Shown piece by piece: positions 2,166 through 39,362 of a stretch of DNA of 39,745 bases. The stretch's first letter is position 1; each line of letters opens with the position of its first letter. The translations under genes were made by a program, and so were the position numbers. The stretch comes from a virus. The DNA lies in UHGV virus genome UHGV-0127686. One strand, written 5' to 3'. The notes under the pieces are model-generated. The model saw nothing but the letters and a program-made list of their open reading frames with translations, did no database searches and had not been told where the DNA came from.

Positions 2166-2642
2166 ATGAAACAGCTTTCCTTTTTACCCGGCGAGATGAC
2201 GCCACAGGACCGGCGTCTCATTCAGCGGGCGCTCAGGGCTCTGGACCGCCACCTGCATGAGCCCGGCGTAGCCTTCACCTCTACCCACGCCGTACGTGAA
2301 TGGCTGCGACTGCATATGGCCGCGCTTGAGCGGGAAGAGTTCCGGGTGTTGTATCTGGACAACCAGAATCAGTTGATTGCCCATGAAACGCTCTTCACCG
2401 GCACGATTAACCGCACCGAGGTGCATCCCCGGGAGGTGGTCAAACGTGCTCTGCACTTCAACGCGGCGGCGGTGATACTCGCGCATAACCATCCTTCCGG
2501 CGAGACGACACCTAGCCAGGCCGACAAAACCCTCACGCAGCGACTGGTTCAGGTGCTTCAGCTGGTGGATATCCGTGTCCCTGACCATCTGATTGTCGGT
2601 GGCAGGCAAATCTATTCGTTCGCAGAACACGGTCTGCTTTGA
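2166..2642 (+). CDS. RadC-like JAB-domain protein (YkfG/YeeS family)
   Basis: 158 aa; JAB/MPN signature AHNHPSGETTPSQAD; RBS ggagc upstream. Confidence 0.8.
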   Translation: MKQLSFLPGEMTPQDRRLIQRALRALDRHLHEPGVAFTSTHAVREWLRLHMAALEREEFRVLYLDNQNQLIAHETLFTGTINRTEVHPREVVKRALHFNAAAVILAHNHPSGETTPSQADKTLTQRLVQVLQLVDIRVPDHLIVGGRQIYSFAEHGLL

Positions 2643-2650
2643 GGTATTAC

Positions 2651-2872
2651 ATGAAAATTATCAGTAAACGCAGGGCAATGACGATATACCGCCAGCATCC
2701 TGAGTCCCGAATCTTTCGCTACTGCACCGGCAAATACCAGTGGCACGGTAGCGTCTGTCATTACACCGGCAGGGACGTTCCGGATATCGCCGGAGTCCTC
2801 GCGGTATACGCCGAACGCCGCCAGGACCGCAATGGGCCCTATACCTGCCTGATGAGCATCACCCTGAACTGA
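2651..2872 (+). CDS. DUF987 small protein (YkfH/YeeT family)
   Basis: 73-aa product from internal ATG; FRYCTGKYQWHGS and GVLAVYAERRQD resemble the YeeT family. Confidence 0.55.
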   Translation: MKIISKRRAMTIYRQHPESRIFRYCTGKYQWHGSVCHYTGRDVPDIAGVLAVYAERRQDRNGPYTCLMSITLN

Positions 2873-2890
2873 CAATAGTGGAGAACTGTA

Positions 2891-3570
<680 letters not shown>

Positions 3571-3671: not shown

Positions 3672-3951
3672 ACGGACAAACAATCATGCAACCAGAAGTT
3701 GAAGTATTAACCGATCATAATGAGCTAATTTGTTCGAGCTTTATTGAACACATTGCCAACACATTAAATTTAGGAGTGGTGTACAACTAAACCTGCAGCC
3801 AAGGATGTATAGTGAGCGAAGCCCTATCAGGCCTTTTTGGTCAGTAGATAAGATTGATCTTCGTTGATAGAATTTACTTACACCAGCTGTTACATTAAGA
3901 TAATTTTTTGGTGGGAGAATGATAAGAACTTACGTAACAATTTGATTTTAA

Positions 3952-3997
3952 TGGTGCCGATAATAGGAGTCGAACCTACGACCTTCGCATTACGAAT
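3952..3997 (-). repeat. 46-nt partial tRNA-Thr 3' end (att core / element junction)
   Basis: Reverse complement reads attcgtaatgcgaaggtcgtaggttcgactcctattatcggcacca, the recalled 3' part of thrW through CCA; the sequence upstream of it is not tRNA-like, so it is a partial copy. Confidence 0.75.
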
Positions 3998-4437
3998 TAT
4001 AAGAATCCGCTTCTAATTCAAAGTATTATCCCATCAACACTGCGCTCACACGTCCCACCACATCAAAACATGTAAAGCCTTGCAAGCCATTGCGAGGCCT
4101 TATGTGTCTCAGTTTTGTCCCACCTTGTATTACGACTTGCATAGCCAATGAAGATAAACGTGACGACAAACGGCGCAGCAGTCTTCTTTTCCTTCATACT
4201 TTCCCCACCCAGCATGCATACCTTTATGCCATAACTGAAGTTTATGTCTGTTATGAGCGAGGAACGGACATTACTAACAGCATTCTGTGTGAATCACCAG
4301 GGAGCAGGTCAGCGCCACTACTCTATATAATCGCTAACGATGACAAGTATAATTATATAAGTCTTTGCCCTTAGCTTTTGGATAAAATTGTTGAAGTTTC
4401 ACGAAAATAATGATAAACAAAAAAAGTAGCAATAATA

Positions 4438-5070
4438 ATGGATTTAATTATGGAATGGAGATTTTTAGGTTCTCTATCAGAGGCCAGGAAATCTGGCTGT
4501 AGCGGAGTTTATCTTATTGTCCATAAAGGACTTTTCAGTCGTGTGGTTTACGTTGGGGTAAGTTGTAATGTAGGTAGAAGGATAACCGAACATTACGACG
4601 GTTATCTTAGAGGAAATCGAACAATTTACGACGCTGGTCACGACGAAGACGTTTATCGCTTCATGTCAGCTTATAAAATTCATAACCACACAAAATACTA
4701 TCAAGCCTTGGCGAATGATTATAAGATATGGGCATCTACCACAATGTATTCTGATTTGCCGAAAAACATGCTAGCAAAAAGCCAAACCTTTGATACTGAT
4801 TGGCAGAGCATTGCATTAGAAAAATATATTCCTCAACTGGTAGTATGGGCCCTTCCAATGGCAAAGTACTGTTATTCAAATGCAAGCAGGATTGAAAGTG
4901 TAATCCAATCAAAGCTCATTAAATCTTTTGATTTGAGAGGTTTTTTTAATATAAAGCAATTAAGCATATTGGGTAAAATTGAATATCCCTATATGGAAAA
5001 GGTCAAAGTTTTCATTATTAACACACCTGATTTAGACCCGGCATCCCAGCTTATTTTTAGCAATCTATAA
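4438..5070 (+). CDS. GIY-YIG-like nuclease-domain protein (cargo)
   Basis: N-terminus GVYLIVHKGLFSRVVYVGVSCNVGRRITEH fits the GIY-x(10)-YVG...R...E pattern; AT-rich; weak RBS, start uncertain. Confidence 0.5.
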   Translation: MDLIMEWRFLGSLSEARKSGCSGVYLIVHKGLFSRVVYVGVSCNVGRRITEHYDGYLRGNRTIYDAGHDEDVYRFMSAYKIHNHTKYYQALANDYKIWASTTMYSDLPKNMLAKSQTFDTDWQSIALEKYIPQLVVWALPMAKYCYSNASRIESVIQSKLIKSFDLRGFFNIKQLSILGKIEYPYMEKVKVFIINTPDLDPASQLIFSNL

Positions 5071-5700: not shown

Positions 5701-6570
<870 letters not shown>

Positions 6571-6592
6571 GTCTTTAAGTGATAAGCATAAA

Positions 6593-6632
6593 CCGCAGCA
6601 CGATCTTCTTGCATACGACGTGCTACGGTTTC
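6593..6632. repeat. imperfect hairpin repeat, copy B
   Basis: gcagcacgatcttcttgcatacgacgtgctacggtttc, abutting the pin stop codon; agcacg/cgtgct stem around a conserved ttcttgcatacga loop. Confidence 0.55.
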
Positions 6633-7185
6633 ATTTATCTCCGACCGGAAACTTCTTATACAGTGTCGATATACCAACATCATAGATGATCGCCACCTTC
6701 TGGCGAGGAACGCCTGATGCAATTAATCGTCCGGCCTGCTCCCATTGTTCTGGTGTAAGTTTGGGGCGACGTCCACCAATTCGTCCCTGTGCGCGAGCTG
6801 CTTCCAGTCCAGCTTTTGTTCGTTCAACAATCAGTTCACGCTCCATTTCAGCCAGGGCACCCATCACATGAAAGAAAAAGCGCCCCATTGGGGTACTGGT
6901 ATCAATTGAATCCGTCAGACTACGAAAGTTGATGCCTCGTTCGCGCAACTCCTCCACCAGCACGACAAGATGCCGCATACTGCGTCCCAGTCGGTCCAGT
7001 TTCCAGACCACCAGCGTGTCACCTGCCGATAATGTCCTGAGCAGCTTTTTCAGTCCTGGTCTGTCGGACTTTGTACCGCTTATCTTGTCTTCAAAAATCA
7101 GTTCACATCCTACACAGTTCAACGCATTACGTTGTAGATCGGTGTTCTGGTCATTTGTTGATACGCGTACATAGCCAATAAGCAT
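6631..7185 (-). CDS. pin: serine DNA invertase, Pin/Gin/Hin family
   Basis: 184-aa product from internal ATG; [22 protein letters not shown] with catalytic Ser, [16 protein letters not shown]-terminal HTH; very close to e14 Pin as recalled. Confidence 0.92.
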
Positions 7186-7239
7186 GGTGGATCTCCCTGA
7201 CAAAAGCAGGAATGATGCCATTTGCTCGTTATTTCTGCA

Positions 7240-7265
7240 TTTTCATAAACGTTGGTTTGGGAGAA
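7240..7265. repeat. invertase crossover site, left
   Basis: ttttcataaacgTTggtttgggagaa, 26 bp; right half-site identical to the reverse complement of the site at 9131-9156. Confidence 0.8.
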
Positions 7266-7625
7266 GCGGCGAAACGAAATGTGGGAACAGGGGAAAATCA
7301 GATACCGGACATGGCCTCTTTTGCCAGTGGTGATGGATGGATGAAATTACCCAACGGGAAAATCCTGCAATATGGTCGTGGGCGTGTGTCTCCTACGCTT
7401 GCGAGTCAGACACTACGGGTAGAATTTAATATACCTTTCCCTAAAAAAGCTGATATTGCCTTGCTTTCACATTCTGGTGATGGTGGTTCAACTGCCGGGA
7501 GTGGTCGTGGTTTTATGATGACAACTGAAGAGCCAGGGTTAACAGGGTTTTATTCTGCCTTTAGAACAACCTCGACAAGTCCAACTGTTACCATGAATTA
7601 CTGTTGGTGGGCTGTTGGCGAGTAA
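7251..7625 (+). CDS. alternative tail-fibre C-terminal variable segment (startless, fused to the constant part after inversion)
   Basis: Frame is open from inside the left site ([11 protein letters not shown]...) and matches the frame of the fibre constant part across the right site (ENLGLGE); no own start codon needed. Confidence 0.65.
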
Positions 7626-7645
7626 TTTTATTCAGGGTGATTTAT

Positions 7646-8089
7646 ATGAACAAATATGTTTATAGTGCCAGACATAATGCTTTTTTCCCTGTGGATATGA
7701 TTGATAAATATAAATCAGAGGGATGGGATTTATCAGATGTGAAAGAAGTGAATCAAAATATTATCAGTGAGTTTATGGCTGAACCGCCACAAGGAAAAGT
7801 CCGTATTGCCGGAGATGATGCGCTGCCTGCGTGGGCTGATATTCCTCCACCCACGCATGAAGAGCTTATTGAAATTACTGAATCAGAAAGACAGCTACTA
7901 ATTAACCAGGCCAACGAATACATGAACAGTAAACAATGGCCCGGTAAAGCCGCTATTGGTCGTCTGAAAGGTGACGAACTGGCGCAATATAATTTGTGGC
8001 TGGATTATCTGGACGCACTGGAACTGGTTGATACTTCCGGTGCGCCAGATATTGAATGGCCTACGCCTCCGGCAGTTCAGGCCAGATGA
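7646..8089 (+). CDS. tail fibre assembly protein (alternate orientation)
   Basis: From ATG at 7646 with RBS agggtga; C-terminal LWLDYLDALELVDTSGAPDIEWPTPP is the typical Tfa C-terminus. Confidence 0.8.
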   Translation: MNKYVYSARHNAFFPVDMIDKYKSEGWDLSDVKEVNQNIISEFMAEPPQGKVRIAGDDALPAWADIPPPTHEELIEITESERQLLINQANEYMNSKQWPGKAAIGRLKGDELAQYNLWLDYLDALELVDTSGAPDIEWPTPPAVQAR

Positions 8090-8663
8090 CATCCGGCGCG
8101 GTGCTGGTATCTGTTGCCGTCAACGCGTCAATATAATCCAGCGCAGCGTTAAGCCGGGTGGTTTCTGCCTGCGTCAGCTTCCGCCCGGCCTGCAATTTCA
8201 ACTGAATCAGACTAATGGAAACCATTGCAGCATCAATCAGTGACTGACGCTGTGCTTCTGCCGCGTCTACTGCGGCGCTATGCTGTGCCTCGGTATCTGT
8301 CACCCATTTCTCACCATCCCATTTATCGTATGGAGATAAAGGGGCGATAGTGGTTGTATTTTCAGGGTAATCACCCGGAGATGTGATTTCTTTTGATTCT
8401 CCTGTTTCGGTGCTATAGAGGATTTCACCGCGATGGTCTGGCACATATTCCCATGAATTAAAATCTGCAGAACGGCGGATAACATAACCCTCCCTATGTA
8501 TACCAGGTGCATCCAGGCAGGAATATGCCGGGATACCAACACCAACGGCAAGATATTCACTTGAAGTGGAAATATATTCCCGAGTTTCACCATCATAGTT
8601 ATAAACAGTAATATCCCCTGCCTTCGTAGCAATAAACTCGCTATTTAATACAGCGTTATCCAT
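8061..8663 (-). CDS. tail fibre assembly protein (expressed orientation)
   Basis: C-terminal NAALDYIDALTATDTSTAPDVIWPELP Tfa motif; start overlaps the fibre stop (TAATG). Confidence 0.85.
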   Translation of the reverse strand: MDNAVLNSEFIATKAGDITVYNYDGETREYISTSSEYLAVGVGIPAYSCLDAPGIHREGYVIRRSADFNSWEYVPDHRGEILYSTETGESKEITSPGDYPENTTTIAPLSPYDKWDGEKWVTDTEAQHSAAVDAAEAQRQSLIDAAMVSISLIQLKLQAGRKLTQAETTRLNAALDYIDALTATDTSTAPDVIWPELPEA

Positions 8664-9499
8664 TATGCAGCCCTCACAATGTAGTTAAATGCAACGTTCA
8701 CCGGGCGAGTTTCATTGGCGGTATTTGCCACCCTTGACATATCGAAATCAAATGTTGTGACACCATGCCCTCCACTACCTACGCCTGTAACCGCTGTTAA
8801 TCCAGTAGTCAGATAGTTATTACCGTTATGACGAAATGGACCACTGGTAACTAAATCTTTAAAAAGCTGAATTTTCCCTATTGAACCAGTGACGTTTTGC
8901 ATTGCATGCTCCTGTGAAGCCAATAGAATCCTTCCGGGGTCAATGCCTCTCCCGTCATCCCAGCCACGAATAAACTCACCGCGTAAATCAGGCAATTTAT
9001 TTGTCGGGTAAGCCTTTGCCAGTTCCGGGTATTCTTCAGCAGAAAATGCCGCACCGTTGCATTTCAGCCAGCCTGTTGGCGGAGTGGCGGAAGGCCACGG
9101 AACAGGCACACCAACGGGTAATGCCGAACCTTCTCCCAAACCAAGGTTTTCGAGAGCTGTTTTCACCGTGCCATCCGATTTGATATCGCCAAACGGATTC
9201 TTGCGGCTCAGGTATTCAACAGCAAACCCCGATCCCAGCAATTCAACAAAACCGGGCAGATCACCATTATCAAGCACATCCCGTTGCGTTTTGTCACTTA
9301 CAAACTGGGCCAGAGCTGCAGCAATAAAGCTGGCCTGCCGAATAACCTTATTGACTTGCGCACTGGATGCTTTCCCTGCTGTAAATCCGGATAAAAGCGC
9401 AGGCAACGCTTCCCATTCCTCCTGCGACATAACATTGGCATTTCGATCCGTTGCAAACGCTTTAAAGTCATTTTTCGCCATCAGAGTAATACTCCCCAT
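8663..9499 (-). CDS. tail fibre protein (constant N-terminus plus variable C-terminus with collar-type domain)
   Basis: 278 aa; crossover site lies inside the gene at the LENLGLGEG codons; C-terminal [18 protein letters not shown]...[15 protein letters not shown] is the phage tail-collar motif. Confidence 0.8.
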
Positions 9500-10161
9500 G
9501 CCCCTACATCAAAACCACTGATGAATTCGTTATCCATATCAAAACCAAAAAATTTTGAACCTTCCGATGGGGTTTCCACCGAAGGTGTTTCAATGCCACC
9601 CGCCCACACACCGGCGGCTTTTACTGTGAGATATCCCTGTTTAATTGCAGCAATTAACTCACGCGATACATCTGAAATATCAGTATCAGGAAAGACCCAG
9701 ACCGATATCGTCATGTCCTGGTTATCGACTATCTGCATTCGCAGTCCGGATCCTGCTGTCGCCGCGTCAAGAATTGCCGGAAGCGAATCATTCCGTCCAT
9801 CCCAGTTATTAATCGCAATCTTCGCTTTAAGGATGACACGATAAGTTTCATCGCTGAGGTACATGTATCCGGAATCAGGATCGTATGGCCCCTGCCATAC
9901 ACCCTGATCATATCCAAGCCCGTCGGTATCCCAGCTGAAATAGACACCTGAGATAGGCTGGCTGACAACACGGCTACGTCCGATCCACAATCCAAGAATG
10001 TCAAGTTGCACACCAACCGCAGAGTCAATATCAAATGCAGTAATCAGCCCTCTGGTGGCAGCCGCAACATCAATAAGTGGCCGGGTCATCAGATCAACAT
10101 GCGCAAGAAATTTAGGTTTGGTGGCGTGGTAGTTCGTGATTAGTTCGGTGTATTTGCTCAT
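9481..10161 (-). CDS. baseplate protein (P2 gpI / Mu gp48-like)
   Basis: 226 aa; position after the J-like gene in a conserved V-W-J-I-H-G order. Confidence 0.6.
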
Positions 10162-11357
10162 GACTCCACCGTTATAACGATATTTTCCGGGGTACAGGAC
10201 GCAGATTCGTTGTATCTGATATCAATGTTTGATGACGACAAAGCCCCCGGGGATTTCCCAATCGTCAGTTCCTGAATATCGTAATAGCGTGCATTCCCGC
10301 CACTCACCACGCCAAGATTCGCCGGTGAGTAAATGCGACTTAAAAGGACCGAATCACCAATCATCAGACTATTGATATAGTCGGAAATAGCCTGCTGGAT
10401 CTGTTGCCCTATCTGTGAGGTATAACCCGTAAAAACTTTTAATTTAATCCGGGCATAAACAGGTACATCACTGGAACGCGAGAATTTGATTACATGGGGA
10501 TTGCCGTATTTATCCGGAACCGTAACGGATGTTGTACCGTGAGTGGCTGTCCCCTGGCCTTTATTCCCTCTGATAGCCTGAGCAATATCCGTCACATCAC
10601 CGCCATCCACAATTACAGCAACAGAGTGTGGCGGTAACCCGTTACCGTCCTCCGAACCAGTATCGTTTTCATAGAGTTTGTGGCGGGTTACACCGGTAAC
10701 ATTAGAAACGGCACCATCCAGTGCTTCAAATGGGGTTATTGATGGCAACGCAACACTTTGCGACTGGCGGATACGTAACTCCGCATCAGTTTCTGCTGGA
10801 GTGCCTACAGTAGCTGCAGCAGGATTGGTTACCGAAACCCAGCCACGGGTTGGCGTATTAATTTCAGTGATAGTTCCAGCCAGCGCCGCCACTGCACCAC
10901 TGACGGAACATGTTGCGGTCACCATCACTGTACCATCCACGCCGACCACCACTGAAGCAGGCAAACGCCATATCACATTATTACTGTCTTTCACGCTGCC
11001 ATTAATGATGGTTGTTCCGGCAGTTCCTGTAAGAAGCAAATCAACCGTAGAGTTCGTCGCGCCTTTACGTGAAATACCATTTATTTTCACGTTACTGGTC
11101 AGTGCAGCCCCATAGCCGGTTGCCGGTGAAAAACAGTTGTAGACAGTTATCGCCGTATTATTGGCATCATGAATCGCCAGCGCCATCAGAGCCACCATCT
11201 GGCCGTCTTTGCTGTCCGGTTCGAGGTAGGCATCACTGCCATAAATCTGCTGAAAATAGCTAATCAGGGTGCTGAGTATCGTCTGATAATCAGGCGCACT
11301 GATCCCCTCCGCGGTTACCTTTGCAGATAAACCGAGAGAATCAAGGTTCAGAGCCAT
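10158..11357 (-). CDS. baseplate J-like protein (P2 gpJ / Mu gp47-like)
   Basis: 399 aa; size and position typical of baseplate J. Confidence 0.65.
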   Translation of the reverse strand: MALNLDSLGLSAKVTAEGISAPDYQTILSTLISYFQQIYGSDAYLEPDSKDGQMVALMALAIHDANNTAITVYNCFSPATGYGAALTSNVKINGISRKGATNSTVDLLLTGTAGTTIINGSVKDSNNVIWRLPASVVVGVDGTVMVTATCSVSGAVAALAGTITEINTPTRGWVSVTNPAAATVGTPAETDAELRIRQSQSVALPSITPFEALDGAVSNVTGVTRHKLYENDTGSEDGNGLPPHSVAVIVDGGDVTDIAQAIRGNKGQGTATHGTTSVTVPDKYGNPHVIKFSRSSDVPVYARIKLKVFTGYTSQIGQQIQQAISDYINSLMIGDSVLLSRIYSPANLGVVSGGNARYYDIQELTIGKSPGALSSSNIDIRYNESASCTPENIVITVES

Positions 11358-11710
11358 TACGCCTCCGATGTAACAGTCGTTATTCCATAAAGAGTGTCGA
11401 TTTCAGCGGAAAACATGACACGTCGGGTCGTGGTATCCACCGTCGTATTGAAAGAGAGGATTGATTTAACGCCCCGCGTTTCGAGGATGCGCTTACGGAT
11501 CGCCAGGTTGTAGGTTTCCGGCTTCTGCTTACCGAGTACGGACTGGATCCACGGAGTCCCCTCGGTGGTGTCGAGAAACCATTGCCCATACCACAATTCG
11601 AATCGCGTTTTTACCGCCTGCGCCACGGCCTCCGGTGAGTTAATCAGCCAGGTGTCATCACCGCTGCCAAAGGTGTAATCGCCATCGGCGTCTTCACGTC
11701 TGTATCGCAT
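11357..11710 (-). CDS. baseplate protein (P2 gpW / Mu gp46-like)
   Basis: 117 aa between V-like and J-like genes; overlapping start/stop. Confidence 0.6.
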   Translation of the reverse strand: MRYRREDADGDYTFGSGDDTWLINSPEAVAQAVKTRFELWYGQWFLDTTEGTPWIQSVLGKQKPETYNLAIRKRILETRGVKSILSFNTTVDTTTRRVMFSAEIDTLYGITTVTSEA

Positions 11711-12462
11711 CAGTTTACCCCATCGGTATTGCTTCCACCGCGCTGAACACCGCCATGAGTGTGCGTATCATCGATTGGCTTGCCGTTAGCCTTCACGCTA
11801 CCCAAAAACTCAACAACACCAGTGATTTTTGAAGCCACACCAGAAACAACAGACCCCACCATGCCCCCCATCCAGGTTAACAGGCCATGAATGGTTACTT
11901 TCTCAGAAAAATCAGCCAGAGGGGCAACCACATCAAGACCACCCGGAGCGACAATTTTAATTTTCCTGGTATCAGGATTAAGCTCAAAATAGGTGCTGCC
12001 ATCGTCACTACGCAACTGTGTGGCACTGGTATTAATACCGCTAATCTTCCTCGCCTGCGACTGGGGGCCTACAATACAAAACGCATCCGATAAATCATGC
12101 ATTCTGTCATCGACCGGTTCCTGTATTCCGCCGCTCTGCCACCAGAAATCAATACAACGATCGGCAAAAACGACAAGACACTCATCCCCGGCTTTAATCG
12201 GAAACGTTAGCGTACATCCTCCGCCACGTGGGAATACCACTGGAACATCCACCAACAATGGGTAATTTTTGGTAATGCGGTTGCCGTCATTATCCTTTTC
12301 AACCGAACGGATAGCAGGCTGCACAACCGCCGTCACCGCATCAGGATCGAATGACTGAATAATGCCAGGCAAGGCGACACGGATCTGATTCTTTGTTGTT
12401 TCCCGTTCAGATTTGAATGTTTCGGCAAGGTCGCCGCTGCGGGTCTGGTCAGATACTGCCAT
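11710..12462 (-). CDS. baseplate spike / assembly protein V-like
   Basis: 250 aa; VDVPVVFPRGGGC and C-terminal HTHGGVQRGGSNTDG recall gpV/gp45-type spike proteins. Confidence 0.7.
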   Translation of the reverse strand: MAVSDQTRSGDLAETFKSERETTKNQIRVALPGIIQSFDPDAVTAVVQPAIRSVEKDNDGNRITKNYPLLVDVPVVFPRGGGCTLTFPIKAGDECLVVFADRCIDFWWQSGGIQEPVDDRMHDLSDAFCIVGPQSQARKISGINTSATQLRSDDGSTYFELNPDTRKIKIVAPGGLDVVAPLADFSEKVTIHGLLTWMGGMVGSVVSGVASKITGVVEFLGSVKANGKPIDDTHTHGGVQRGGSNTDGVN

Positions 12463-12480: not shown

Positions 12481-12506
12481 CAAAAAACCCGCCGGGTGGC
12501 GGGTTT
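12481..12506 (-). terminator. rho-independent terminator (bidirectional hairpin) after the cargo operon
   Basis: cccgccgggtggcggg hairpin flanked by an A-run on one side and T-run on the other; overlaps the stop of the 138-aa gene. Confidence 0.65.
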
Positions 12507-12921
12507 ATGAATCGTAGGTTTTCAATTTTTCGAGTTCATCAGGAGGAAGTTCTATGAAGGTTTCCTCTGCTAATTTTATCAGCCGGGGAAGCATCGAATC
12601 AGCTTGCTGATGAGCGTTTGGGCTGATGATTGCCAATATCTGATAGTGTTCATCGATATAAAGATGCTGAGCATATACCAAAAAATTATCACATGTCCGT
12701 TCACTCAGAGATGCTTCTGGAGGCCAGGGTTTATCGCCAGGTAGCTTTAAGTGAATTTTCCTGATGTTGGCAGCCATCGCATCATAGTTACGTTCAAAAC
12801 CGCCTAACGAACCAAAACACCAGAACTGGGAACCCTTTGAAATATAATCGGCAAGCATTTGAGCATACTTATGTGCTGCAGCTAAATGACGCAATTCTCC
12901 CGTGATACTGACTTTTGCCAT
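12505..12921 (-). CDS. hypothetical protein, second gene of a two-gene cargo operon
   Basis: 138 aa, ATG start 1 nt after the upstream gene's stop; no family recognised. Confidence 0.6.
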   Translation of the reverse strand: MAKVSITGELRHLAAAHKYAQMLADYISKGSQFWCFGSLGGFERNYDAMAANIRKIHLKLPGDKPWPPEASLSERTCDNFLVYAQHLYIDEHYQILAIISPNAHQQADSMLPRLIKLAEETFIELPPDELEKLKTYDS

Positions 12922-12922
12922 G

Positions 12923-13495
12923 TCACATCCATTTAGGGGCGTTGGCTCCCAGCATCTTATGCGATGTTGAGATCAGTTCAATAGCCTCTTCACGGGTAAC
13001 ATTATCTGACAAGAGTTCAGCCTGGAAAGGCTGCGATTGCCTAACTTCAGCGGCCAACTGAGTTGCAGTGTTCTCGACGGCGGTCAACGCACGAACATAT
13101 TTGCGTTTTAATGGGCGCAACATTTGCAGATGGCCTTGCCACATAGGGGACCTTTCCGCTTCAGAGAACATATCCACTAAATGTCCTTTAGCATTTCGGC
13201 ATGCCTTGGCAAGACCTTCGAGATGGGATAAAAACTCTTCCGGAAGCTCATCAACAATGATTCTCCCATTTCGAAAAGCTTCGAGATGAGACATGCCTTC
13301 CTTCGCGGTATTTTCGATTTCTTGAGCGCGTGCAGCAATCGCGGTACAACGACGAAATACCTCTTCAGCATCTAATCGTTGTGGCAGTTCACAAGCATTA
13401 GAGATCAGGGGTTTGAAAGCACCGTTAACAGCTTCCTGAACCTGATTCATTTGTTGTGTAATTGTTGCCAGCGCAAATGCGTAGCTAATCGCCAT
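12923..13495 (-). CDS. hypothetical alpha-helical protein with Rx4H motif, first gene of the cargo operon
   Basis: 190 aa from ATG at 13495 with gagg RBS (track ORF begins with TTG at 13501); contains RNAKGH, reminiscent of a HEPN Rx4-6H motif (weak). Confidence 0.55.
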   Translation of the reverse strand: MAISYAFALATITQQMNQVQEAVNGAFKPLISNACELPQRLDAEEVFRRCTAIAARAQEIENTAKEGMSHLEAFRNGRIIVDELPEEFLSHLEGLAKACRNAKGHLVDMFSEAERSPMWQGHLQMLRPLKRKYVRALTAVENTATQLAAEVRQSQPFQAELLSDNVTREEAIELISTSHKMLGANAPKWM

Positions 13496-13663
13496 ACCCA
13501 ATCCCTCTGTCGTTTTAAACGACTATACACCACTTATTCAAAGTTAGCTGAGCGCTAAAAGTTCGCAAAGTTTAGTGATCATGCAACCACCTAGCAAGCG
13601 ATAAAAAATCATTATTTAGTGAATGTGAACAAACTCAACACTATGCAGAAATGTAACTTTTGG

Positions 13664-32338: not shown

Positions 32339-32414
32339 TGGTGCTGGTTAACGGACTTGAACCGCTACCCATTCGCTTACAAGGCGACCGCTCTACCATT
32401 GGAGCTAAACCAGC
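32339..32414 (-). tRNA. tRNA-Thr (anticodon UGU)
   Basis: 76-nt cloverleaf folded by hand: 7-bp acceptor, D-loop with GG, anticodon loop cUUGUaa, T-loop TTCAAGT, 3' CCA; one non-WC pair at 27-43. Confidence 0.65.
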
Positions 32415-32419
32415 ATATT

Positions 32420-32495
32420 TGGCGGGACAGCGTGGACTCGAACCACGATAAGAAGGTTAACAGCCTTCCGTAATGACCTTTATACGACTGACCCA
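32420..32495 (-). tRNA. tRNA-like sequence, Asn-type anticodon GUU (possibly degenerate)
   Basis: Perfect anticodon arm (gaagg/cUGUUaa/ccttc), T-arm GGTTCGAGTCC and CCA end, but acceptor stem has a T-T mismatch and the D-arm is irregular. Confidence 0.4.
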
Positions 32496-37653: not shown

Positions 37654-38370
<717 letters not shown>

Positions 38371-38456: not shown

Positions 38457-39362
38457 ATGTCGATTAACAGCAATAGCGAATCCCTGCATCAAATGCAGCT
38501 TTTCCCTGTAGTAGAGGTTGTTTCTGATGATATTCCTATGGGCGTTCTCAATGATGGAACTCCTTACCTAACTCTCTACGGTCTCGCAAAGTTATGCGGC
38601 ATTGATGACACGCCACTGAGGGTGTTCACATCAAACTGGAACACAGAGAAAAACAAACCCAGAGGTCAAAAAGTAGCTGCGTATTTAGCTGAGAAAGGGT
38701 TTCATAACGTCGAAAAGCTATACACTCGCGTTTTAAATAGCTCAAACGTGGAAACTCATGCTTATCCTGACTATGTTTGCATGGCTATCCTCCGTTACTA
38801 CGCTCTAGATGCCACCAATTTTGATAGGTCAGTCGCAATAGGTAATTTTGTTCGCTTGGCTGAGTACACGCTTAAGCGAATGATTTATGAAAAGTCAAAT
38901 TACAACCCAAATGCTTCAATAGATATCTCATTCGAGAACTATAGAGCAAGGATTAAGCTAAACGATCAGATACCGACAACTCATTTTGCAGTATTCAGAG
39001 AGATAGCTGACATTGCCATGAACCTGATCGGAGGAGGATTCCCAATGGATGACACCACATCTTTGGATGGAAGTGTTGGAATTCACTGGGGAAAGTATTG
39101 GACAGCTAATGGGCTATCTGAGAAATTCGGGGAAAGGGTGCAGTACCCACATTTATTCCCCGAAAATTACAGGCAGTCAGCTGCAAATAAGCATATAACA
39201 GCTTGGATTTATCCTATTGAGGCACTTGGCGTGTTCAGAAAATGGCTACACGATAATTACGCAATGGAAAAACTGCCAAATTACCTTGGGAACAAAAAGA
39301 TTAGTAACGCCTCCGAGCTATTAGAGTCGATAAAAAAACCAGCACTCCCAAATAAGCATTGA
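38457..39362 (+). CDS. hypothetical 301-aa protein in the rexA/rexB position
   Basis: ATG at 38457 with aaggaaa RBS; AT-rich; no resemblance to lambda RexA or RexB as recalled; N-terminal third loosely resembles a Bro-N/KilA-N-type domain (tentative). Confidence 0.8.
   Translation: MSINSNSESLHQMQLFPVVEVVSDDIPMGVLNDGTPYLTLYGLAKLCGIDDTPLRVFTSNWNTEKNKPRGQKVAAYLAEKGFHNVEKLYTRVLNSSNVETHAYPDYVCMAILRYYALDATNFDRSVAIGNFVRLAEYTLKRMIYEKSNYNPNASIDISFENYRARIKLNDQIPTTHFAVFREIADIAMNLIGGGFPMDDTTSLDGSVGIHWGKYWTANGLSEKFGERVQYPHLFPENYRQSAANKHITAWIYPIEALGVFRKWLHDNYAMEKLPNYLGNKKISNASELLESIKKPALPNKH

Follow-up and report, generated by a model that had tools for sequence, protein, structure and literature searches.

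Evidence for an e14 P-type tail-fibre inversion switch in a SEN34/vB_EcoM-611R5-like prophage

The P segment of e14, a decayed 15-kb cryptic prophage of E. coli K-12 with YmfQ, carries the genes stfP-tfaP / tfaE-stfE-pinE, and its invertase, PinE, is reported to invert the segment experimentally (PMC12529663). The G segment of Mu and the C segment of P1, with their invertases Gin and Cin, share the same logic, in which a serine invertase lies beside a segment bounded by 26-bp, imperfectly palindromic sites with a 2-bp core; a site lies in the fibre gene S, the alternative cassettes are Sv/U and Sv'/U', and in P1 the 5' end of the invertase gene contains an annotated enhancer. A further role for such a segment has been described as PinQ/e14 'recombinase-activated phage inhibition' (Kirigo et al., NAR 2025, PMC12529663), where a defence phenotype was obtained from over-expressed proteins of a cryptic prophage.

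Here, we analysed a stretch of 39,745 nucleotides (UHGV virus genome UHGV-0127686, referred to below as the window), a contig from a metagenome assembly with ~3.75x coverage, in which a first-pass annotation had described an invertase-operated tail-fibre switch. All features described for this locus were confirmed to be present in the sequence (Table 1), and its reading as a Pin/Gin/Cin-type fibre switch is supported. The region is very probably a two-state, Pin-catalysed inversion switch of the e14 P-segment type, which ends the late (tail) operon of a SEN34/vB_EcoM-611R5-like prophage. The kind is long known as the e14/Pin "P-segment", and the window holds an ordinary intact copy of it; its tip pair differs from that of e14.

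Table 1 Coordinates of the switch components within the window.
Feature	Coordinates	Strand	Remarks
pin, DNA invertase (serine recombinase), 184 aa	6631..7185	-	6631 end includes the stop codon
Presumed Fis-dependent recombinational enhancer, pin nt 19-90	7096..7167	-	placed by homology only
Left (pin-proximal) 26-bp crossover site	7240..7265		central dinucleotide 7252-7253
Invertible segment, 1,891 bp between crossover dinucleotides	7253..9143		fibre frame preserved on in-silico flipping
Silent alternative fibre tip, Gp53-like_C	7212..7625	+	tip-specific part ~7266-7625 (~120 aa); Pfam PF21882, E 1.4e-9
Tfa chaperone of the silent cassette, 147 aa	7646..8089	+	Pfam Caudo_TAP, E 2e-30; 53% identity to e14 TfaP over 112 aa
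Tfa chaperone of the expressed cassette, 200 aa	8061..8663	-	Pfam Caudo_TAP, E 8e-32; 89.5% identity to e14 TfaE
Variable C-terminal part of the fibre in the expressed orientation, collar-type tip, ~155 aa	8663..9130	-	Pfam Phage Tail Collar, E 5e-15
Right 26-bp crossover site	9131..9156		inside the fibre gene, codon 113; central dinucleotide 9143-9144
Constant N-terminal fibre part, ~113 aa	9157..9481	-	last gene of the baseplate/late operon

The likeness to Mu G, P1 C and e14 P drawn in the first-pass annotation was correct, and the closest system is e14 P specifically. The two loci share their gene order, a Pin protein that is 95.1% identical over 184 aa, both 26-bp sites, a tail-to-tail overlap of 29 nt between the two tfa genes, and a defence gene directly beyond pin (mcrA in e14, PD-T4-3 in the window). 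In addition, StfE (59% identity) and TfaE are homologues of the window's collar-type tip and of its chaperone, respectively. Whereas e14 is decayed, the element in the window seems to be a full E. coli myovirus prophage of the SEN34/vB_EcoM-611R5 type, ~35 kb long and apparently complete, with a DUF2612/baseplate-J tail module and genes for tape measure, sheath, portal, terminase, replication and repressor. A second defence gene, BstA, also flanks the element; PADLOC returned no match for the 7212-7625 ORF or for two ORFs of no known kind at 12505-13501. Differences extend to the fibre itself: its N-terminus is unrelated to e14 StfP outside the final 30 aa before the site (90% identity), the middle of the collar tip is replaced relative to StfE, and BLAST gives no similarity between the gp53-like tip and the StfP tip, the chaperone of this second cassette being 53% identical to TfaP. 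The segment of e14 measures 1,797 bp, slightly shorter than that of the window, and in the MG1655 reference it lies in the opposite orientation to the window, in which the collar tip is expressed.

Resemblance to Mu and P1 lies in the layout described above and in the enzyme, as Gin and Cin align with the window's Pin without gaps. However, the invertase genes share 68-74% nucleotide identity, Mu G and P1 C have far longer segments (3 kb and 4.2 kb) and longer fibres, the sites differ from those of the window in outer positions, and P1, unlike the window, has a site at the 3' end of cin. The system of PMC12529663 uses the same sites and has the same ORF beside pin, consisting of a leader and a gp53-like tip, but the tip sequence is different from the window's.

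The inverted 26-bp sites proposed by the first-pass annotation are both present. The left site, in reverse complement, reads TTCTCCCAAACC AA CGTTTATGAAAA and is identical at 26 of 26 positions to the pin-side site of e14, while the right site, TTCTCCCAAACC AA GGTTTTCGAGAG, is equally identical (26/26) to the stfP-side e14 site and codes for ..ENLGLGE.. within the 272-aa tail fibre, where it had been placed. The two are in inverted orientation, with the central AA common to both; aligned as 26-mers they are alike at 21 of 26 bases, and they share an identical 14-nt inner arm and core, TTCTCCCAAACCAA. A repeat search of the window found arms at 7247-7266 and 9130-9149 (20 nt, 95% complementary), and the 14-mer occurs exactly twice in the 39.7 kb, also with 2 mismatches allowed, compared to a chance expectation of 0.34 matches and at least two matches in 4 of 100 shuffles. 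Since each site is identical over its full length to its e14 counterpart, chance is excluded. The inverted repeats quoted in PMC12529663, TTGGTTTGGGAGAAGG and CCTTCTCCCAAACCAA, are matched here at 15/16 and 16/16 positions. The outer, non-coding half of the left site keeps the invertase half-site pattern TTnTCnnAAAC and resembles the gix sites of Mu and the cix sites of P1. A multi-site shufflon of the p15B/Min-like kind was rejected because the window holds two sites only.

The neighbouring gene encodes a Pin-type invertase, as had been claimed, with a Resolvase domain (PF00239, E 2e-51) and an HTH_7 domain (PF02796, E 4e-13), which correspond to the resolvase catalytic domain with active-site serine and the C-terminal HTH of the Hin/Gin/Cin/Pin invertases, proteins of about 180-190 aa. 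Pin, PinE, Gin and Cin share two identical motifs, the N-terminal YVRVSTNDQ, with Ser9 as the active-site serine, and DRLGRS. Nine substitutions separate Pin from PinE; four of them match Gin and/or Cin (positions 41, 129, 149 and 178), and the other five (A25V, A157S, T159V, V172I and A181V) lie outside both motifs. The exact protein is found on 7 contigs and in NCBI as 'site-specific DNA recombinase'. The start at 7185 agrees with every database copy, in place of the 196-aa ORF from 7221 that the first-pass annotation had taken for the gene.

A recombinational enhancer is presumed to lie within the 5' end of pin. The P1 record annotates an 'enhancer of Cin-mediated C-segment inversion' at nt 19-90 of cin, and a gapless alignment places the equivalent stretch in the window's pin, with 76% nucleotide identity to cin and 93% to e14 pin. 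The proportion of identical synonymous codons in this putative enhancer was only slightly raised, at 0.56 versus 0.41 (p about 0.05, with pin/gin/cin pairs that are non-independent). A loose Fis-motif regular expression, GNNYRNNNNNYRNNC, matched one site conserved in all four invertase genes (nt 71-85); no clear partner was found 48 bp from it in these genes with the same expression, and therefore no claim is drawn from the match.

Between the sites lie two convergent cassettes, each composed of a fibre tip and its own Caudo_TAP chaperone, in agreement with the ~1.9 kb of paired fibre-variable and assembly genes first described. The fibre gene most likely starts at 9481, giving 272 aa, rather than at 9499 as initially annotated, and this start overlaps the stop of the DUF2612 wedge gene (9481-10161). 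Its constant part is near-identical in Z1323CEC0011/0014 and AP027899. The two tips belong to different domain families, Phage Tail Collar in the expressed orientation and Gp53-like_C in the silent cassette, and the alternative tip is indeed short and unlike the expressed one; this fits different receptors for the two. Among solved structures, the collar tip found counterparts in a short tail fibre (9cuy, E 2e-22), the T4 gp37 tip (2xgf, E 3e-14) and also T4 gp12, whereas the gp53-like tip, searched against PDB sequences, had a marginal match only (E 0.036). RefSeq 'gp53-like domain-containing protein' ORFs in the equivalent position share 76-79% identity with the silent tip, and both Z1323CEC0011 and CH458 have a tip of this type joined to the constant fibre part.

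The frame is open across the left site, as had been noted, and flipping the segment in silico yields an in-frame fibre of 236 aa, so that inversion would swap the fibre tip. The alternative C-terminus was, however, wrongly called startless: two ATGs outside the segment, at 7212 and 7215, precede the left site by 13-14 codons and open an ORF of 136/137 aa, and RefSeq annotates a homologous 136-aa ORF as a gene.

Natural inversions were observed in relatives. Over 5.7 kb, the only difference between two clonal E. coli isolates, CH423 and CH458, is an exact reverse complement between the sites; their flanks of 2,247 and 1,564 bp have 0 mismatches, and the 1,911-bp site-to-site stretch is exactly reverse-complemented. 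In this pair, the two sites carry different bases at one position immediately beyond the core (AAACG versus AAACC), and this difference was not exchanged, which confines the crossover to 15 nt starting at the canonical central dinucleotide. Similarly, Z1323CEC0014 and Z1323CEC0011, which share the DUF2612-type backbone of the window, carry opposite orientations, their segments showing 52 mismatches as reverse complement compared to 1,363 when aligned directly. The annotation of Z1323CEC0011 includes the flipped-state fibre as a complete protein of 236 aa, which has 87% identity to the fibre that the window yields after the in-silico flip. Among 5,426 complete E. coli genomes, the junction of pin with the gp53-like tip was found in 276 and that with the collar tip in 942, and on one contig encoding the identical Pin the collar tip adjoins pin, the opposite state to the window. 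The exact flipped fibre (236 and 242 aa) was absent from a collection of 15 billion proteins, which is a weak and uninformative test since the expressed allele is listed there on four contigs only.

For the window's copy, which is probably active, the following mechanism can be proposed. Pin dimers would bind both 26-bp sites and, on the model of Hin, Gin and Cin, would form a synapse with an enhancer that lies within the first ~90 bp of pin and is occupied by Fis; cleavage at the central AA/TT dinucleotide would then be followed by a 180-degree rotation and religation. Late transcription would arrive from the baseplate genes and read the ~113-aa N-terminal anchor, then the adjoining cassette; because the right site lies in codon 113, late transcripts would always carry the same anchor together with whichever cassette adjoins it. 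The orientation seen in the window would give the 272-aa fibre with the collar-type tip and the 200-aa chaperone, and the inverted orientation the 236-aa fibre with the gp53-like tip and the 147-aa chaperone. A lysogen population would thus release two kinds of virion, which may differ in receptor specificity.

The ORF from 7212/7215 invites another interpretation, built on the proposal, made for StfE2, that a free tip masks host receptors against competing phages (PMC12529663). Besides or instead of virion host range, the switch might control a lysogen-protecting free tip of this kind, which we consider unlikely; the orientation in the window, with the leader joined to the gp53-like tip, would then be the StfE2-like state. 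An ATG-initiated ORF does span the left site, but an AGGA abuts its first ATG and lies 3 nt from the second one, which is poor spacing for ribosome binding, and a sigma-70 scan found no promoter-like site directed into the ORF. The ATG is kept at the same position in the relatives examined, including strain 2018-10-2CC (NZ_AP027899), although the leader peptide there differs from that of the window (MPVSHNLCIFLNV is one of the two leaders compared); this leader is thus unconserved as a peptide, and its DNA doubles as the upstream region of pin on the opposite strand. StfE2 of e14, formed by the same leader and a gp53-like tip, was reported to block T2 adsorption when over-produced (PMC12529663), yet that effect derives from plasmid over-expression and docking in a single study, and the StfP tip that forms StfE2 is the one to which the window's tip has no BLAST similarity. 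Known defence genes adjoin the element, with PD-T4-3 by pin, and BstA; the prophage is, on the other hand, apparently complete, which makes the classical virion role the simpler reading. It is similarly improbable that the switch has two outputs, such that one flip would swap both the virion tip and the lysogen's free receptor-masking tip protein in an intact prophage with PD-T4-3; in the window orientation, the free protein would be the gp53-like tip, of 136 aa, made from the ATG outside the left site.

Very unlikely, in our estimation, is a frozen switch, in which the anatomy is inherited, no meaningful flipping occurs (through a weak pin promoter, A25V or enhancer loss, for example) and the second cassette is a silent relic. 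The inversions observed are in relatives, but these include ones whose Pin is identical to the window's at 178 of 184 positions, and they flipped recently. In vB_EcoM-611R5 and its relatives, the closest isolated phages, the invertase is a 104-aa stub and the alternative tip a 55-aa stub, so switches of this lineage do decay; in the window, however, pin, both sites and the tip and chaperone genes are intact and free of frameshifts and stops, and the sites are those of the functional e14 system. The A25V substitution is absent from PinE, Gin and Cin, and a sigma-70 and terminator scan of 6400-10300 showed no promoter-like site for pin; since that scan gave fewer matches than shuffles, it decides neither way on the promoters of pin or the 7212 ORF. 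Moreover, the Pin paralogues PinQ and PinR can flip the same sites in trans (PMC12529663).

That the inverted repeats are a by-product of facing homologous fibre genes, inverted by general homologous recombination without Pin, has a negligible probability: the repeat does sit in coding sequence common to both tips ('LGLGE'), but at 20 bp it is far below the length for efficient RecA-mediated exchange, the left site keeps the invertase half-site pattern and full e14 identity in its non-coding outer half, a dedicated invertase lies 55 bp from the site, and the CH423/CH458 crossover is bounded to 15 nt at the canonical dinucleotide.

The significance of the window's switch goes little beyond annotation, where pipelines that call the pin-proximal ORF a separate 'gp53-like domain-containing protein' in fact label one half, the silent one, of a fibre gene that can switch. 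The element may also serve as a natural test bed for the claimed defence role of that ORF, a claim to which our analysis lends no direct support. With the Pin-catalysed fibre switch as the preferred reading, the e14-type P segment, familiar mainly from a decayed cryptic prophage, also occurs complete, and apparently functional judging from its genes and sites, in a full SEN34/vB_EcoM-611R5-like temperate myovirus.

The invertible tail-fibre switch recognised in the first-pass annotation is real and was correctly interpreted: Pin-catalysed inversion of fibre-tip and chaperone cassettes is very probably the best explanation for this region, which is a known textbook system: its invertible tail-fibre segment belongs to the e14/Pin family, e14 being a cryptic prophage of E. 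coli K-12. Two convergent cassettes lie on opposite strands, each tip having its own Caudo_TAP chaperone (Tfa); the 3′ ends of the chaperone genes share 29 nt in a tail-to-tail overlap identical to that of tfaP/tfaE in e14. The right site lies within the fibre gene, which probably starts at 9481, and the frame across the left site is open into the alternative C-terminus, as had been proposed; when 7253-9143 is inverted in silico, the gp53-like tip follows in frame on the constant 113 aa, and the resulting fibre has 236 aa. The alternative tip is indeed short and unlike the expressed one, which is related to short and long tail-fibre tips in the PDB (9cuy, E 2e-22; T4 gp37, 2xgf, E 3e-14; T4 gp12), whereas a PDB search with the alternative tip gave no more than a marginal match. 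The collar-type tip (8663-8930, minus strand) contains a hypervariable middle block of ~90 aa, wholly different among the window, e14 StfE and E. coli strains 2018-10-2CC and Z1323CEC0014, between conserved flanks (GLGE...GRGID at the start, ETRP.N.AFN.IVRAA at the end), a sequence pattern which suggests that its receptor-binding surface may be exchanged as a cassette within a cassette.

Features of the switch and of the surrounding prophage in the window
Feature	Coordinates	Strand	Position, evidence or remarks
RadC / DUF987 / CbeA antitoxin / CbtA toxin module	2166-3570	+	Left of prophage
210-aa ORF	4438-5070	+	GIY-YIG match, sub-threshold only
PD-T4-3 defence protein	5797-6570 (mechanical ORF from 5746)	+	Directly beyond pin; PADLOC E 3e-140; Pfam LEM-3-like GIY-YIG
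pin, serine recombinase, 184 aa	6631-7185	-	ORF map; NCBI, ENA, JGI gene calls
Left site, 26 bp	7240-7265		55 bases from pin start; sequence
Alternative tip, open frame from left site (GLGE + ~120 aa)	to 7625	+	Gp53-like_C
Chaperone of alternative cassette, 147 aa	7646-8089	+	Caudo_TAP
Chaperone of expressed cassette, 200 aa	8061-8663	-	Caudo_TAP
Fibre, 272 aa	8663-9481	-	Last gene of baseplate operon; Phage Tail Collar domain, C-terminal part
Right site, 26 bp, inverted copy	9131-9156		Fibre codon 113, encodes ..ENLGLGE..; sequence
DUF2612 wedge	9481-10161	-	Operon order
Baseplate J	10158-11357	-	Operon order
Baseplate operon gene	11357-11710	-	Operon order
Spike, baseplate operon	11710-12462	-	Operon order
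Two ORFs, 138 and 192 aa	12505-13501	-	Inserted in baseplate gene cluster
tRNA-Thr(TGT) and tRNA-Asn(GTT), adjacent	32339-32494	-	Inside prophage
Repressor	37657-38370		Adjoins BstA gene
BstA abortive-infection protein	38457-39362	+	Near other window end; PHROG 6287, E 6e-133

The alternative tip had been described as startless. Its frame does continue across the site, but two ATGs (7212 and 7215) precede the left site by 13-14 codons and create a 136/137-aa ORF, whose equivalent in relatives is labelled 'gp53-like domain-containing protein' in RefSeq. This pin-proximal ORF might have an added or alternative role in defence, as claimed for e14 StfE2 (a leader plus gp53-like tip), and the orientation found in the window resembles the StfE2 state. 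We consider such a role unlikely, however: the ribosome-binding context is poor, with AGGA abutting the first ATG, a promoter scan gave no signal for the ORF, its leader peptide is not conserved, differing from MPVSHNLCIFLNV of strain 2018-10-2CC, the window and StfE2 tips are unrelated by BLAST, and the published evidence is from over-expression (PMC12529663).

The invertase is of the Pin type, as annotated, being 95% identical to PinE of e14 and aligning without gaps with Gin of phage Mu and Cin of phage P1; its mechanical ORF spans 6631-7221, yet the 184-aa form called by NCBI, ENA and JGI starts at 7185, not at 7221 as previously read. Four of its nine differences from PinE (positions 41, 129, 149 and 178) agree with Gin and/or Cin, and the remaining five (A25V, A157S, T159V, V172I and A181V) have no counterpart in either of these and are all outside conserved motifs; A25V was singled out among the latter. 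Inversion of the e14 segment has been reported for PinE and, in trans, for PinQ and PinR (PMC12529663). A recombinational enhancer, anticipated in the 5′ part of pin, may lie at 7096-7167, the stretch to which the Cin enhancer annotated in the P1 GenBank record (cin nt 19-90) maps through the gapless alignment (76% identity to cin, 93% to e14 pin); synonymous sites there, compared codon by codon, showed only a marginal excess of conservation.

For the segment of the window contig (ENA ERZ1311591 NODE_354, coverage 3.75), we sought orientation variants in nature, comparing the window region, as it stands and flipped in silico, with 5,426 complete E. coli genomes. Each of the two aligned collinearly over almost its full length, the matching strains not being the same, and junction-specific queries found pin joined to the gp53-like tip in 276 genomes and to the collar tip in 942. 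CH423 and CH458, isolates from the same study and hospital (chromosomes of 4,740,904 and 4,740,891 bp), have identical flanks over 2,247 and 1,564 bp, and the 1,911-bp stretch bounded by the sites is an exact reverse complement. One base differing between the sites just outside the core (AAACG versus AAACC) was unexchanged, which places the crossover within 15 nt starting at the canonical central dinucleotide. The collar-tip fibre gene of CH423 (3934-4447 of the CH423 sequence compared) is an incomplete pseudogene according to RefSeq, whereas the fibre of CH458, its flipped-state clone, is intact at 220 aa; this relative may therefore have one defective state of the two. Z1323CEC0014 and Z1323CEC0011, which have the DUF2612-type backbone and constant fibre part of the window, likewise differ in orientation: the segments show 52 mismatches when one is reverse-complemented and 1,363 when compared directly. 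The annotation of Z1323CEC0011 includes the flipped fusion, a protein of 236 aa that shares 87% identity with the flipped fibre predicted for the window. In one contig encoding an identical Pin, the collar tip adjoins pin, so that its orientation is the reverse of the window's. Several short-read contigs with this Pin, among them three that break off 78-114 bp upstream of the gene, terminate at the left site or a little beyond it, a pattern expected of both orientations in a population or of prophages sharing the site. That the switch is a frozen relic is very unlikely given these recent flips in relatives and the integrity of all six of its parts.

The inverted 26-bp sites are present as first reported. 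A repeat search recovers them as 20-nt arms with 95% complementarity, and their common 14-mer, TTCTCCCAAACCAA, occurs nowhere else in the window with two mismatches allowed (0.34 expected by chance). Written as half-site, core and half-site, the left site (reverse complement) is TTCTCCCAAACC AA CGTTTATGAAAA and the right site TTCTCCCAAACC AA GGTTTTCGAGAG, and both contain the e14 inverted repeats quoted by Kirigo et al. 2025 (PMC12529663), at 15/16 and 16/16 positions. That the repeat is due to chance, or serves only homologous recombination, is scarcely credible and is excluded because each site is identical to its e14 P segment counterpart at 26/26 positions, the non-coding half-site included.

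In its tail and head genes the element shares 97% identity with E. coli phages vB_EcoM-611R5, 606R2 and 683R1, and ~81% with Salmonella phage SEN34. Since structural, replication and repressor genes are all present (tape measure, sheath, portal, terminase, DnaB-like helicase, O-like initiator and repressor), the element looks like a complete temperate myovirus, unlike the remnant e14. In the closest isolated phages, with 97% identical tail genes, both tfa genes are kept and the invertase (104 aa) and alternative tip (55 aa) are stubs (2453-3192 in vB_EcoM-611R5, ON470588.1); with these two parts shortened, the switch evidently decays in some lineages. PD-T4-3 holds the slot occupied in e14 by the McrA restriction enzyme gene, and other contigs also have PD-T4-3 paired with pin, followed by cargo that differs. 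The 138- and 192-aa ORFs, for which PADLOC gave no match, and the 210-aa ORF could also be cargo genes. The RadC/DUF987/CbeA/CbtA module is typical of CP4-type islands, so part of the window is either non-phage flank or a second island; the window showed no integrase.

For the Pin-catalysed switch, we propose that the window's copy is active, with Pin catalysing conservative inversion at the AA core, presumably assisted by Fis and the enhancer, which would set one of the two tip and chaperone cassettes behind the constant fibre anchor. What is new is the combination of tips, on an apparently complete prophage backbone. If, as we infer, the two tips differ in receptor, the virions released by a lysogen would be of two kinds, each with its own receptor specificity.
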